This document shows, piece by piece, positions 570-42,638 of a DNA stretch of 64,000 bases (its first letter is position 1; every line of letters begins with the position of its first letter). Origin of the DNA: Candidatus Hermodarchaeota archaeon (GTDB lineage Archaea; Asgardarchaeota; Lokiarchaeia; Sigyniarchaeales; SOKP01); NCBI GenBank assembly GCA_048885925.1, contig JBHLLG010000009.1:1-64000 (forward strand). Reading direction: 5' to 3'. Under the pieces are notes generated by a model. The model was not told where the DNA came from, ran no database searches, and saw only the letters and a program-made list of their open reading frames with translations. A program made the position numbers and the translations under genes.

Positions 570-1580
570 ATGTTTAAAATGCATCTAAAAGATAAAATTG
601 GAATACATTTGGACCAAATAAAGCAACTTAAAGGCGTAGAGAATGCTGTTCTAACTCAGCGAGATGGTAATCCTATTCAAGCTACCGGCGTATGGTTTTC
701 TAAAGATGAAATTTTCAATGTAAGTTCTGCAACAAGTGCTATATTTAATGTAGGGATTCATTTACATCCAAAAGATTTAAAATACATTTTAATAGAGGGT
801 AAAAAAGCAAAAATATTAATTGCTCCATTAAATAGTCCGGTACATGAATCCTTAAATAAAATACTACAAACTCAGGGGATTTTAGATTATAATCATGAAT
901 ATTTTATCGCAATTACAGCTCAGCCAAATATCAATTTAGGAGGTATTTTTTTACAAACGAATGAATGTTTAAAAAAAATTAAAACAACTCTAATAACATC
1001 GGGAGAATGTTTTAAACCACCTCTAATTCAGTTTAATAATCAAAAAATTCAAAGAATCATCGAAGGTTTTAATATTAAAGAAACAGAGAACTTTGATCTG
1101 CATTTATCTTCATTTTCGATCAGTTTTTCTGAGACGATATCATTAGAATTAAGGAAAGTTCTAAGTAATATCTCTTTAACGATTCCTGATTTAAAATATG
1201 CATTTATTACAATTGAGGGCGGTTTTATTGCATCTCAAATTTTAAAAAAAGTTGAAATCGATTCTGAAAAATTAGATAAAATCTCAGCAATGAGTTATTC
1301 ACTTTTTCAGACAGCCAATAGATGTGCTTGGTTATTAAAAAAAATGCAAGCTGAAAGAATTTTACTTGATTGTAAAGATTCCTTCCAGTTTATTGATGGA
1401 TTAGGAAAAGCTATTTTTAGTACAGAAATTGGTAAACTTAGACAAAAATTAGGATTAATAAGATTAATACTTCCGCAATTTTCAAAAAAAATTAATAACC
1501 TTATTAAAGAAGCATCAGAAGTTCAAGACCATCGAATATTTGATATTAAAAGAATGCTAGGAGAGTTAATAATAAAGTAA
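570..1580 (+). CDS. Tandem Roadblock/LC7 (MglB-like) domain protein
   Basis: Two repeats of the roadblock pattern: GVENAVLTQRDGNPI..VSSATSAIF and DLKYAFITIEGGFIAS..KISAMSYSLF. Confidence 0.85.
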   Translation: MFKMHLKDKIGIHLDQIKQLKGVENAVLTQRDGNPIQATGVWFSKDEIFNVSSATSAIFNVGIHLHPKDLKYILIEGKKAKILIAPLNSPVHESLNKILQTQGILDYNHEYFIAITAQPNINLGGIFLQTNECLKKIKTTLITSGECFKPPLIQFNNQKIQRIIEGFNIKETENFDLHLSSFSISFSETISLELRKVLSNISLTIPDLKYAFITIEGGFIASQILKKVEIDSEKLDKISAMSYSLFQTANRCAWLLKKMQAERILLDCKDSFQFIDGLGKAIFSTEIGKLRQKLGLIRLILPQFSKKINNLIKEASEVQDHRIFDIKRMLGELIIK

Positions 1581-2489
1581 TTGGGTGAAATTATGAATTT
1601 CTTTGATTTTTTAGATAAATTAAAGCGAAATTATAATTCAATAATTCTTTATTGTCTATTAGATAGAATTCCAATTGTTATATTGGGAGATGATTCAGAT
1701 TATATTGATAACATTTTAATCGAACTTTCTGAACTTGTTCATTTTCGTAAAGATTATATCTTTTATACTGATTTTATCTCAAAAATTGAGTATGAAAATC
1801 TTATTTCAAATGAAGAAATAGATTATAATTATCAACGGGCGCATATTAGATGCCCTTGTAATGTTTCTTTCAAGGCATTAAATCAATTTGATAAAATTCA
1901 ATCATGGCTTATTGGATTAAAAAACTCAGAGGAAAAAGAGCAATTAAATTATATCAAAAATCTGATTAAAAAAAAAGCAAATGAGATTCTATATATTATA
2001 ATTACTCCTAAAGATATTTACATAGATTTAGAAGGAGTAAATATAAAATCAATAGATTTAACATTTGAACAAAATATTTTCAAAAAAATTTCTCAAGATA
2101 CTGAAAAATCCATTGCAAAGATGAAGAGAGTATTATCAGATAAAATAACTACCAATAAACTTGATAAAGATTTAGTAAAAACATTGTTAGATTTTGATCA
2201 AGAAAAAAGCGAATTAAAAAAGAATATTTTTAAAAGAGAAATTCAAAATTTCTATTCTGGTTCAAAAAGAGCATTTTTTATTTTCTCTAGATTACAATTA
2301 TTAAATAATTTAGAAGTTCAAACAAGTATTGGAAGTAAAACGCTCCTAGAAACAATAGATTATGAAGAAGCATCAATAGAAAGAATAATTTCTTTTATAA
2401 AAAAAGAATGGGGTGAAAATTATTCAGATTTAATTGAAGATGGTAAAAAAGCATTCATTGGTGATAAATTAGTTTCACTTTGGGGTTAA
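1581..2489 (+). CDS. Hypothetical protein, cDENN/folliculin-C-like N-terminus
   Basis: ILYCLLDRIPIVILGDDSDYIDNILIELSEL resembles the core DENN helix-strand-helix; abuts the roadblock gene; start may be ATG 1593. Confidence 0.55.
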   Translation: MGEIMNFFDFLDKLKRNYNSIILYCLLDRIPIVILGDDSDYIDNILIELSELVHFRKDYIFYTDFISKIEYENLISNEEIDYNYQRAHIRCPCNVSFKALNQFDKIQSWLIGLKNSEEKEQLNYIKNLIKKKANEILYIIITPKDIYIDLEGVNIKSIDLTFEQNIFKKISQDTEKSIAKMKRVLSDKITTNKLDKDLVKTLLDFDQEKSELKKNIFKREIQNFYSGSKRAFFIFSRLQLLNNLEVQTSIGSKTLLETIDYEEASIERIISFIKKEWGENYSDLIEDGKKAFIGDKLVSLWG

Positions 2490-2496
2490 AAAAATT

Positions 2497-3090
2497 ATGA
2501 TTTTTAATTATGAAAATAAAACTTTACAAATTAAAATAGTATATTATGGACCTGCGATGTCCGGAAAAACAACATCTATAAAAGCTCTCTTTTCTTATTT
2601 TAAAAAAGAAAATAAAGTAAAATCAATTGATAGCTCAGTAGGACGTACATTATTTTTTGATTTTGGCGTTTTAGAATTCAAGGGAACCGTATGGGGTGTA
2701 AAATTTTTGATTTATTCCGCAACGGGTCAAGATTTTTATGCTAGCACTCGACCAGCAACCTTAAATGGAGTAGATGGAATAATTTTTGTTGTTGATTCTC
2801 AAATCGAATGTTTACAGTATAATATTAGATCTTGGAATGAATTAAAAACATTATTTGGTCAGGAATTTTATAATATTCCAATTGTGATTTCATTTAATAA
2901 GTGTGATCTATTAGAATTAGAATCTTTAGAGAAAAAGGAATTTTTATCATATATAGAATTTAATAGATTTAAAAGCATAACATTAGAAAGAACAGTAGCT
3001 ATAAGGGGAGAAGGTGTATTAAATTCATTTAATCAATTAATTAAATTTTTATTTCCACAAATGAACATTAATTTAAGTGTAACTTACTAA
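2497..3090 (+). CDS. MglA-like small GTPase
   Basis: KIVYYGPAMSGKTT, GRTLFFDF, ATGQ, GVDGIIFVVDSQ, NKCD. Confidence 0.9.
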   Translation: MIFNYENKTLQIKIVYYGPAMSGKTTSIKALFSYFKKENKVKSIDSSVGRTLFFDFGVLEFKGTVWGVKFLIYSATGQDFYASTRPATLNGVDGIIFVVDSQIECLQYNIRSWNELKTLFGQEFYNIPIVISFNKCDLLELESLEKKEFLSYIEFNRFKSITLERTVAIRGEGVLNSFNQLIKFLFPQMNINLSVTY

Positions 3091-3287
3091 TTTTTATTGT
3101 TATTCTTCTTCTCAACTTTCACATACATATTTTTTGATATTCTTTTTATATATCCCTGTAAATAAAATTGTTTAAGTAAATTTCTGACTTTTCTAACTTC
3201 TAAAGCATCAATTCTTAAAATGCTCATTAGTTGAAATATTGAAAATTGTCTTGGTAAATTATTTTTTATATTGCTATATAAGCCCAT
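3087..3287 (-). CDS. Small winged-helix-like protein
   Basis: 66 aa, VRNLLKQFYLQGYIKRISKNMY wing-like motif. Confidence 0.6.
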   Translation of the reverse strand: MGLYSNIKNNLPRQFSIFQLMSILRIDALEVRKVRNLLKQFYLQGYIKRISKNMYVKVEKKNNNKN

Positions 3288-3585: not shown

Positions 3586-4272
3586 TTAAAATTCGCGAAA
3601 ATCTTTGAAATTATCTCCAATTGGGGCCTCTCCATCACCATATATTTGATATAATCCTGTTCTTCTAGCACATTCCGAAAAACTACGATAAACGTTTTTT
3701 CTTTGCTCATATAAAGCACAAGATCTATAGATTATAGGATTCCAAATATATAATTTATGATCAGGCTCATACAAAAGTTTTTCATCTTTTAATACTTGTT
3801 TAAAATCTTCTTCCCCTATTACTTCCGTAAGATCTTGTTTATTAAGCATGATTATAAGGGGAATCTCTTTTATCAATTTGCCTCTAGTAACATTCTTCAA
3901 TTCTTTTAAAGATTCTATATTATCTTCAAAGAATTGAGTTTGCGAATCAACAGTAAATATAACTCCATCAGTTCCCTTGAAAATTTTTTTTCTTAAAGGA
4001 GAAAACCTTCTTTGACCAGCAACAGTATAAACATGGTAAAATACTTTTCCTCTACTCTTTTGTTTTGTTGATTGAAATATTCCTCTATCGAAATAAAGGG
4101 TCGATCCACTAGCCATTGAGATTTTTGTTAGATTTCCTGTAGGTTCAATATCTTTTTCATTTTCTTTTGTATATCTATATAAGGTGTCTACTATAGTTGT
4201 TTTTCCCGATCCCGCCATACCCCAATAGAGGATTTTTATATATACCTTATGATCTGCTGTAAATCGAACCAT
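3586..4272 (-). CDS. MglA-like small GTPase (second paralog)
   Basis: KILYWGMAGSGKTT, STLYFD, YTVAGQ, GTDGVIFTVDSQ, NKQD, SCA. Confidence 0.9.
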   Translation of the reverse strand: MVRFTADHKVYIKILYWGMAGSGKTTIVDTLYRYTKENEKDIEPTGNLTKISMASGSTLYFDRGIFQSTKQKSRGKVFYHVYTVAGQRRFSPLRKKIFKGTDGVIFTVDSQTQFFEDNIESLKELKNVTRGKLIKEIPLIIMLNKQDLTEVIGEEDFKQVLKDEKLLYEPDHKLYIWNPIIYRSCALYEQRKNVYRSFSECARRTGLYQIYGDGEAPIGDNFKDFREF

Positions 4273-4972: not shown

Positions 4973-5998
4973 ATGGACAGAATTAACGATATGATAGAAG
5001 ATCCTAAAAATTGTCCTGAATGTGGAGGAAATATAGTACTTAACAGCTTTGAGAAAATCTGCAGTAAATGTGGATTAGTAATTACTAAATTTTATAGAGA
5101 AACAGCCTTCATGTTTAATCGTTTAAAAAGTATGAATAGCTCGAGTAAACAATATGTTGCTCTAGGAGATAGAACTGATTTCATTGGAGGTTTAGGTTCA
5201 TTTATTGATTATGAAAAATCTAAATATCTAAAAGATAAAAGTGGAAAACTTTTACCTCCAAATGAACAAAAATTATTTAGGAGATTGAAAAAAAATTATG
5301 CTCAATTTCTCAGAATTAAAGATCATGAGACCGAATATAGAGTTTTTAATATTTTAAATAAAATTTCATTATATCTTAACCTCAACAAAAATATTCGTAA
5401 TAATGCTGCTTATTATTATAAAAAAGTAATTAAAAATGAAGAAAAAATCATCAATAACATTTCCCTAATAGCTTTTTGTATCTTTTATGCCGCGAGGAAA
5501 GAATTTCATAATGCTCCTATTACGATTAATGAGATTTCGAATGGATTTCAAAATTTCGGGCACCGTGTGAATCCAAGGTTGATTTTAAGAGACGGTATAA
5601 AATATAAGCACCATTTAAGCAATGAATCTGCACCTCATAAGAGTGAAGATTATCTTGTAAGATTAATAGATGAAATCATGAATCAAAGGAAATTAGAAGA
5701 ACGATTAATAAAAAAAGGAATAAAATGGTCTAAAAATGAATTCCAAAATAAATTGATAATACAATGTCATGATGTTTTAAAAAAGTTACCTCTATGGCAA
5801 AGAGGTGGGAGAAATCCATTCATTTTGACTGGAGCGATTATTTATTTGGCAGATAAATTGATAGCTAAACAAAATAATCAAAAAGCAGTCTTAACTCAGA
5901 AAATTATATCTGAAGCAACTAAAATTGCTGAATATTCTATCAGAGATCATTATGTAAATCTTTTAAAACCTATTTTTATGAAACAGTGGAAAAAGTAA
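4973..5998 (+). CDS. tfb: Transcription factor IIB (TFB) paralog, divergent
   Basis: Zn ribbon CPECGG..CSKCGLV; cyclin repeats; GRNP motif; TQKIISEATKIAEYSIRDHY HTH. Confidence 0.88.
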   Translation: MDRINDMIEDPKNCPECGGNIVLNSFEKICSKCGLVITKFYRETAFMFNRLKSMNSSSKQYVALGDRTDFIGGLGSFIDYEKSKYLKDKSGKLLPPNEQKLFRRLKKNYAQFLRIKDHETEYRVFNILNKISLYLNLNKNIRNNAAYYYKKVIKNEEKIINNISLIAFCIFYAARKEFHNAPITINEISNGFQNFGHRVNPRLILRDGIKYKHHLSNESAPHKSEDYLVRLIDEIMNQRKLEERLIKKGIKWSKNEFQNKLIIQCHDVLKKLPLWQRGGRNPFILTGAIIYLADKLIAKQNNQKAVLTQKIISEATKIAEYSIRDHYVNLLKPIFMKQWKK

Positions 5999-38594: not shown

Positions 38595-38669
38595 GGACCT
38601 ATAGCCTAGCCTGGATAGGGCGTCGGACTTCTAATCCGAAAGTCGCAGGTTCGAATCCTGCTAGGTCCG
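38595..38669 (+). tRNA. tRNA-Arg(TCT)
   Basis: Acceptor GGACCTA/TAGGTCC, TCGGA-CTTCTAA-TCCGA, GCAGG-TTCGAAT-CCTGC. Confidence 0.97.
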
Positions 38670-38672
38670 CTC

Positions 38673-42564: not shown

Positions 42565-42638
42565 TGGGAAAGGGGGGCTTTGAACCCCCGACCTCACGGT
42601 TATCAGCCGTGCGCTATACCAGGCTAAGCCACTCTCCC
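42565..42638 (-). tRNA. tRNA-Ile(GAT)
   Basis: Minus strand GGGAGAG..CACGG-CTGATAA-CCGTG..GGGGG-TTCAAAG-CCCCC-CTTTCCC-A. Confidence 0.96.

Follow-up and report, generated by a model that had tools for sequence, protein, structure and literature searches.

We identified, in a 64,000-nt stretch of DNA from Candidatus Hermodarchaeota archaeon (the whole of which is hereafter called the window), an operon of three genes on the + strand at 570-3090, which is predicted to code for a tandem Roadblock protein (gene 1), a stand-alone DENN-fold protein without the longin lobe (gene 2) and a small GTPase of the MglA family (gene 3). With a probability of about 0.6 we read this operon as a self-contained GTPase switch, in which the Roadblock pair would serve as the GAP (GTPase-activating protein) platform, with the DENN protein as a second regulatory subunit. 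Observed in this study were the three folds or families, the missing longin, the gene order, a common phyletic pattern and the co-inheritance of the genes. Regulators of the DENN/folliculin type were, to our knowledge, long held to be restricted to eukaryotes, and to find DENN in Asgard archaea, next to an MglA GTPase of bacterial type and a Roadblock platform, is relevant to the origin of the eukaryotic regulation of membrane traffic and nutrient signalling.

Liu et al. (bioRxiv 10.1101/2020.10.19.343400; Nature 2021) have described an operon that most Asgard archaea conserve and that combines a small GTPase with a DENN protein and a protein of the Roadblock superfamily; in their text the components are given as a LAMTOR1-like Roadblock-superfamily protein, a Rab-like small GTPase of a family distinct from Rag, and a DENN-domain protein that was assigned independently from sequence profiles. 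The module was proposed in the same text as a candidate guanine-nucleotide exchange factor (GEF) analogous to folliculin, which may act on Rab and Rag GTPases. The window operon is one more instance of this published operon, a match that rests on the text of Liu et al. and not on accession numbers: the same three components are present and nothing essential is different, except that the GTPase is here named a member of the MglA family rather than 'Rab-like', and that the Roadblock protein is here resolved as a tandem with an MglB-like second half. A preliminary description of the window, made from the sequence alone, had implied that the module was new; this implication has to be withdrawn, because the operon was already presented in the 2020 text of Liu et al. 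as a folliculin-like GTPase regulator. The evolutionary point is likewise in the literature, to which the window adds one more genome only, and the remaining interest of the module is its biochemistry, namely its binding partners and which subunit is GAP and which is GEF. Among related reports, as far as their accessible text goes, Tran et al. 2024 mention Asgard GTPases that resemble MglA as well as Asgard Roadblock structures, the preprint of Vargova et al. lists groups of MglA together with DENN domains for these archaea, and a 2026 paper on COMMD proteins remarks that prokaryotes have folds similar to DENN but takes the matter no further. Within the full-text literature, subscription journals being outside its coverage, no title or abstract was found to report an experimental study of the three-gene module.

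The structure of the gene 1 protein was modelled by AlphaFold2 (AF2) on an alignment of 41 orthologues, with a predicted local distance difference test (pLDDT) of 80.2 and a predicted template-modelling score (pTM) of 0.79. The model consists of two helix-strand-strand-helix-strand-strand-strand-helix units, at about residues 6-144 (including an insert) and 184-320, connected by a linker of low confidence at 145-183 (pLDDT <50 at 168-182); the pTM value suggests a defined mutual arrangement of the two units. After structure comparison by VIA-align over 48,161 representative chains, domain 1 matched the Thorarchaeota Roadblock 7f8m_A (Z 11.5, root-mean-square deviation (rmsd) 1.7, 113 residues aligned, model 6-141), and domain 2 matched MglB 3t1r_A (Z 17.5, rmsd 1.6, 130 aligned, model 184-317), M. 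xanthus MglB 6hjm_A (Z 16.1) and Roadblock proteins of MK-D1, a Lokiarchaeon in culture (Z 16.7 for Roadblock3, 9jue_D, and 15.0). By sequence, the Pfam family Robl_LC7 was detected on residues 12-89, that is in the first domain only (28.1 bits against a cut-off of 23, E 1.8e-6), a PDB search gave a faint Roadblock match at residues 230-311 (E 0.79), and BLASTP between the two halves found no similarity (E 7.6). At the level of the model, gene 1 is confirmed as a tandem of two Roadblock domains. Domain 1 carries the motif Q30-x-D32-G33-x-P35, located between strands 23-30 and 35-40 of the model; each of its residues Q30, D32, G33 and P35 is shared by 38 of the 41 sequences.

For gene 2, neither a Pfam nor an NCBIfam family was found above the cut-off, and its assignment comes from the AF2 model, which was obtained with pLDDT 90.6 and pTM 0.86 and shows an alpha/beta domain at about residues 1-150, followed by a helical domain at about 157-275. 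Ranks 1 to 5 of the VIA-align comparison were all occupied by DENN proteins with Z from 13.4 to 11.0: folliculin 6nzd_H (Z 13.4, rmsd 3.5, 186 residues, chain 347-558, corresponding to the C-terminal DENN domain), folliculin 3v42_B (13.0), DENND10 8p0v_M (11.4), SMCR8 6lt0_B (11.4) and C9orf72 7o2w_A (11.0). When VIA-align was applied to the 1000 best chains from Foldseek, ranks 1 to 6 were again all DENN proteins in the same order, with DENND1B at Z 10.7, and together the DENN matches (FLCN, DENND10, SMCR8, C9orf72 and DENND1A/B), with Z from 13.4 down to 9.8, extend over residues 1-275 of the model. Because the DENN alignment begins at model residue 1 of this 298-residue protein, gene 2 is without the N-terminal longin lobe, and the model describes it as a longin-less DENN-fold protein composed of the core and the downstream helical lobe.

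The gene 2 family comprises 384 clusters at 90% identity and 93 representatives at 50% identity (29 with E <= 1e-30), and its members are annotated as hypothetical proteins in Promethearchaeota, Lokiarchaeota, Thorarchaeota, Hodarchaeota, Odinarchaeota and others. In an alignment of 45 sequences, P27 and R52 are invariant, and R25, E74, R82, W105, E159 and F268 are nearly so. The commonest Pfam family among these 45 members was Folliculin_C, in three of them and below the cut-off (best E 4.8e-4). The language-model neighbours of gene 2, which we take as a lead only, include clusters with C9orf72-like, Folliculin_C/SMCR8_C and SPA/Avl9/DENND11 families, the Folliculin_C/SMCR8_C cluster being eukaryotic with a score of 0.91. 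Homology between gene 2 and the eukaryotic DENN domains is likely, though short of proof at the sequence level.

Gene 3 was recognized in Pfam by general small-GTPase families (Arf, 35.9 bits; Ras, 28 bits). A single-sequence search of PDB placed the MglA proteins of Myxococcus and Thermus at the top (MglA 6hjh_A, E 6.1e-28), followed by Rab5A at 8.7e-7, and a profile of 41 orthologues gave MglA 3t12_A at 6.9e-44 against 2.2e-13 for Rab11B, the best match outside MglA. R50 aligns with the switch-I arginine of MglA (G-R-T-L-F-F-D-F versus E/D-R-T-L-F-F-D-F) and Q78 with the switch-II glutamine (T-G-Q versus P-G-Q), which we take to be R53 and Q82 in the numbering of MglA. In the MglA family Ser or Thr replaces the Asp of the DxxG motif, and S74 of gene 3 aligns with the Thr of MglA Y-T-V-P-G-Q at this position, with Ser in 33 of the 41 sequences. 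The residues G18, G23, K24, R50, T51, Q78, N134, K135 and D137 are each kept in all 41, as are the Walker A motif (P-loop) and the guanine-specificity motif NKxD. By these sequence criteria gene 3 is assigned to the MglA family. The preliminary description had proposed two Roadblock domains in the gene 1 chain, a DENN-like gene 2 without N-terminal longin and an MglA-type gene 3, all in good agreement with the structural matches of both Roadblock units, the DENN proteins at the top of the gene 2 comparison and the MglA-specific profile and residues of gene 3.

Profiles of the two regulatory genes were detected in similar sets of genomes of the phylum, 230 of 399 for gene 2 (66 of the 90 high-quality ones) and 232 of 399 for gene 1. 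Both genes are present in the family-level groups f1, f3-f8, f10, f11, f19, f27, f30 and f31, and their absences coincide as well, examples being f13 (0/31), f15 (0/12), f16 (0/22) and f18 (0/12). The gene order was compared among 69 loci, consisting of the 29 best gene 2 matches, all from the genus of the window (L002-L030), and 40 loci chosen across 11 family-level groups (L031-L070). The order gene 1-gene 2-gene 3 on one strand was found in every one of them, with intergenic spacings mostly from -10 to +22 nt. Because order and strand are kept in 69/69 loci, the arrangement is far from chance, and the synteny across Asgard genomes, for which the preliminary description had proposed a check, is conserved. 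When trees were built with FastTree for each of the three proteins from 41 taxa, 22-24 of 38 splits were found in common, against at most 2 after label shuffling; this indicates joint inheritance and nothing more, as expected of any linked genes.

By analogy with MglA/MglB, a working order of the switch can be proposed. The gene 3 GTPase has an arginine in switch I (R50) and a glutamine in switch II (Q78) of its own. Gene 1 would be the covalent counterpart of the MglB homodimer, because its two Roadblock domains are joined in one chain, and is most likely a platform for a single GTPase molecule (1:1) that, like MglB with MglA, would accelerate GTP hydrolysis by bringing R50 and Q78 into place. 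The most likely part of gene 2 is that of a second regulatory subunit on this platform, serving for nucleotide exchange or, alternatively, as a scaffold or localiser; its placement may resemble that of the DENN lobes in folliculin-FNIP and C9orf72-SMCR8, which lie behind the paired longins. We infer every binding step, the stoichiometry and the assignment of GAP and GEF. A complex prediction of the gene 1, 3 and 2 proteins, in which gene 2 was scored, gave 0.00 and 0.00 against a mark of 0.32, was run without controls and carries no weight for or against binding.

In comparison with MglA-MglB of T. thermophilus and M. xanthus (PDB 3t12, 3t1q, 3t1r and 6hjm), the operon shares the GTPase family, the intrinsic arginine and glutamine, and the location of the Roadblock partner gene beside that of the GTPase. 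It differs in that MglB is a homodimer of single-domain chains, whereas here two diverged Roadblock domains lie in one chain, and in that a third gene with the DENN fold stands between the Roadblock and GTPase genes. Folliculin-FNIP2 (6nzd, 6ulg, 3v42) and C9orf72-SMCR8 (6lt0, 7o2w, 7mge) provide the best structural matches of gene 2, from Z 13.4 down to 11.0, and both these complexes and, by prediction, the operon combine a platform of longin/Roadblock type with DENN lobes to act on small GTPases. The eukaryotic complexes, however, carry longin and DENN on a single polypeptide and pair two such polypeptides, with longin as the platform and Rag or Arf as clients, whereas here the DENN protein is without longin, the platform is Roadblock and the predicted client is of MglA type; the Folliculin_C sequence models, moreover, stay below the cut-off on the gene 2 family. 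Gene 2 also aligns with DENND1A/B, the GEF of Rab35 (3tw8, 6ekk), over the core and downstream lobes of DENN (Z 10.7 and 9.8-10.0) at an identity of 9-14%, but DENND1, whose client is a Rab, carries a longin (uDENN) lobe at the N-terminus of that chain. [quoted passage not shown] The hairpin ahead of strand 2 in domain 1 of gene 1 reads D32-G33-x-P35, which is G-x-P and not G-P, and would recall the GP motif only loosely.

Several observations weigh against a switch with a DENN subunit. The PDB sequence search with gene 2 yielded chance matches only (E 1.4), Pfam models of the DENN clan were above the cut-off in none of the 45 family members, and the search for longer, fused relatives, which found none at E <= 0.001 among 5293 candidates, did not uncover a Roadblock-DENN fusion, a result that is weak evidence in both respects; six relatives of middle length carried no informative Pfam domain. 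The Foldseek comparison proposed in the preliminary description was divided, with DENND1B 3tw8_C at probability 1.00 (E 4.7e-3) and folliculin chains at 0.94-0.97, standing among ATPase chains, and with no match at E <= 0.001. The catalytic arginine of folliculin and SMCR8 sits in the longin domain, which gene 2 is without, and R31 of gene 1, next to the D-G-x-P hairpin, is outside the columns kept in at least 80% of the sequences. Below the top five of the VIA-align list, the secretion ATPases GspE (Z 10.1) and FlaI (9.6) stand close to weaker DENN scores such as that of DENND1A (9.8), and the fold class of the gene 2 model is therefore one that is shared with P-loop-like three-layer domains. 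Gene 2 might be a degenerate relative of ATPases of the secretion or RecA-type P-loop class, with a likeness to DENN that reflects merely a three-layer alpha/beta architecture, and the operon would then be unrelated to folliculin/DENN systems; GspE 2oap at Z 10.1-10.3, FlaI aligned over 183 residues, the many RecA-like ATPases that match model residues 1-150 at Z 7-8, and the CMG/MCM and ATPase chains at the head of the Foldseek list all point in this direction. We nevertheless consider such an origin very improbable, since DENN proteins occupy the first five and the first six ranks in the two comparisons, exceed the best ATPase by 3 Z units and cover the helical C-terminal lobe (model 1-275), since Walker A is found in 0 of 45 family members, and since the matches below threshold in Pfam and among language-model neighbours are Folliculin_C, C9orf72 and DENND11/SPA/Avl9 and not ATPases, in line with the independent profile-based DENN assignment in the text of Liu et al. 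(10.1101/2020.10.19.343400).

With gene 2 accepted as a DENN-fold protein, its role could be that of an effector or adaptor of the GTP-bound GTPase, with output to the membrane or cytoskeleton, the Roadblock protein alone being the regulator as in the case of MglB. A GTPase with its own R50 and Q78 beside an MglB-like platform needs no further catalytic subunit, and a 2026 Myxococcus paper (PMC13408092) reports in its abstract that RomRX acts as an effector rather than a GEF and that MglB is bifunctional. An effector role is unlikely in our view, because the characterized DENN-fold matches all belong, by their entry titles, to GEF or GAP complexes, and the strict coupling of three genes in 69/69 loci fits a stoichiometric complex at least as well. 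It could also be that the three proteins are merely co-expressed and have different partners, the Roadblock and DENN proteins regulating other paralogous GTPases such as that encoded at 3586-4272, an MglA-like GTPase 500 nt downstream on the other strand; the text of Liu et al. (10.1101/2020.10.19.343400) suggests action on Rab and Rag GTPases, and GTPases of MK-D1 are, by the accessible text of Tran et al. 2024, generally not in operons with regulators. Such a separation is quite improbable, given that the downstream GTPase neighbours the operon only within its own family-level group (7 of the 40 diverse loci, all in f1), in contrast to gene 3, which is present in all 69 loci. The switch could, on the other hand, represent a pre-fusion state of the eukaryotic longin-DENN regulators, in which the Roadblock pseudo-dimer and the separate DENN protein would form a folliculin/FNIP-like complex in trans, with the Roadblock platform as GAP and the DENN lobe as GEF for the MglA-type GTPase. 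Because eukaryotic longin-DENN regulators put their DENN lobes behind a longin pair, the idea, put forward in the preliminary description, of the Roadblock pair as a stand-in in trans for the missing longin lobe, which would give a split GAP/GEF, is attractive; the pre-fusion state as a whole is possible but doubtful. If true, the polarity switch MglA/MglB of bacteria and the eukaryotic Rag/Ragulator/folliculin logic would be directly connected.

The contig that carries the operon belongs to an assembly of 3.9 Mb, 95% complete, and is AT-rich, with a GC content of 0.21-0.32 across the first 10 kb of the window. The gene 2 open reading frame (ORF), which contains the string ILYCLLDRIPIVILGDDSDYIDNILIEL, extends over 1581-2489 (302 amino acids) when read from TTG. 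The relatives are 298 amino acids long in nearly all of the 120 matches listed, which fits the ATG at 1593, and upstream of this ATG stands GGGTGA, a sequence that in our own reading suggests a ribosome-binding site. Because of the length of the relatives and this upstream sequence, the start of gene 2 is most likely the ATG at 1593, and the gap between genes 1 and 2 is therefore more likely 12 nt than 0. The tight coupling given in the preliminary description, with gaps of 0 and 7 nt, is retained in its coordinates, its strand and the 7-nt gap between genes 2 and 3, and is probably to be corrected for the gap of 0 nt. The features of the operon are listed in Table 1.

Table 1. Predicted genes and domains of the operon, in positions of the window
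Feature	Position	Strand	Basis and remarks
Gene 1, tandem Roadblock protein	570..1580	+	ORF, 336 amino acids; Pfam Robl_LC7; AF2 model
Roadblock domain 1 (about residues 6-144; insert at about 87-110; Q30-x-D32-G33-x-P35 hairpin)	585..1001	+	VIA-align
Roadblock domain 2, MglB-like half (about residues 184-320)	1119..1529	+	VIA-align
Gene 2, stand-alone DENN-fold protein without longin lobe	1593..2489	+	298 amino acids; upstream TTG at 1581 would give 302 amino acids
Gene 3, MglA-family small GTPase	2497..3090	+	ORF, 197 amino acids; PDB sequence and profile searches

For gene 1, shortened forms appeared in 3 of the 40 diverse loci (L037, L039 and L056), for which the ORF calls had used ATG, GTG and TTG starts only; in two of the three, the gene 1 profile match spans 4/5-316 in a stop-free open frame, and these are start-codon artefacts and not truncations. 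Separately, one in-frame stop was observed in the gene 1 profile match of six relatives, TAA in G255, G238, G164 and G151, TAG in G182 and TGA in G375.

For gene 2, one marine-sediment metatranscriptome library contained a 233-nt contig identical to window 1601-1833, and two other runs contained none; this is a weak hint of gene 2 expression, DNA carry-over being possible and the contig lying within one gene. A scan for sigma-70 promoters and terminators, which is uninformative for an archaeon, gave no terminator and 29 sites resembling promoters, where 23.2 would be expected. A Folliculin_C search of the same genome gave no match, and as control genomes were equally silent, absence does not follow. 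The one weak match of Folliculin N in the same genome fell on a fusion of longin with Rag/Gtr, for which hhalign showed no relation to gene 2. This fusion protein of 487 amino acids (L071 153-1616, contig C7 of G000) has a match to the folliculin-type longin at residues 96-154 (E 0.0075) and to Gtr1_RagA at 6e-25; the longin-Rag architecture is already known in Asgard archaea from the accessible texts of Tran et al. 2024 and Liu et al. (bioRxiv 10.1101/2020.10.19.343400).

Downstream of gene 3, a 66-amino-acid ORF on the - strand (3087-3287) has its stop codon overlapping the gene 3 stop and a weak match to HTH_25 (E 0.045); its relatives are found at the same place in several loci of the same family. 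The second MglA-like GTPase (3586-4272, - strand, 228 amino acids) is convergent with the operon and more diverged, with MglA 6hjh_A as best PDB match (E 2.5e-20) and Arf in Pfam (7.4e-18), and is a neighbour in 28 of the 29 same-genus loci.

Upstream, an archaeal 16S rRNA gene, cut by the contig end, is represented by its 5' end (1-232, - strand, 153 bits), and the operon begins about 340 nt away. Many relatives have a contig end at a distance of 0.2-2.8 kb from their gene 2 match, on account of which the rRNA adjacency of the operon may be conserved; it may also explain why about 10 of 52 same-genus assemblies are without a match. Elsewhere in the window are a putative TFIIB-like transcription factor (4973-5998, + strand; TFIIB repeat 1.8e-5, zinc ribbon 9.7e-5), a tRNA-Arg (TCT) at 38595-38670 on the + strand and a tRNA-Ile (GAT) at 42565-42638 on the - strand.

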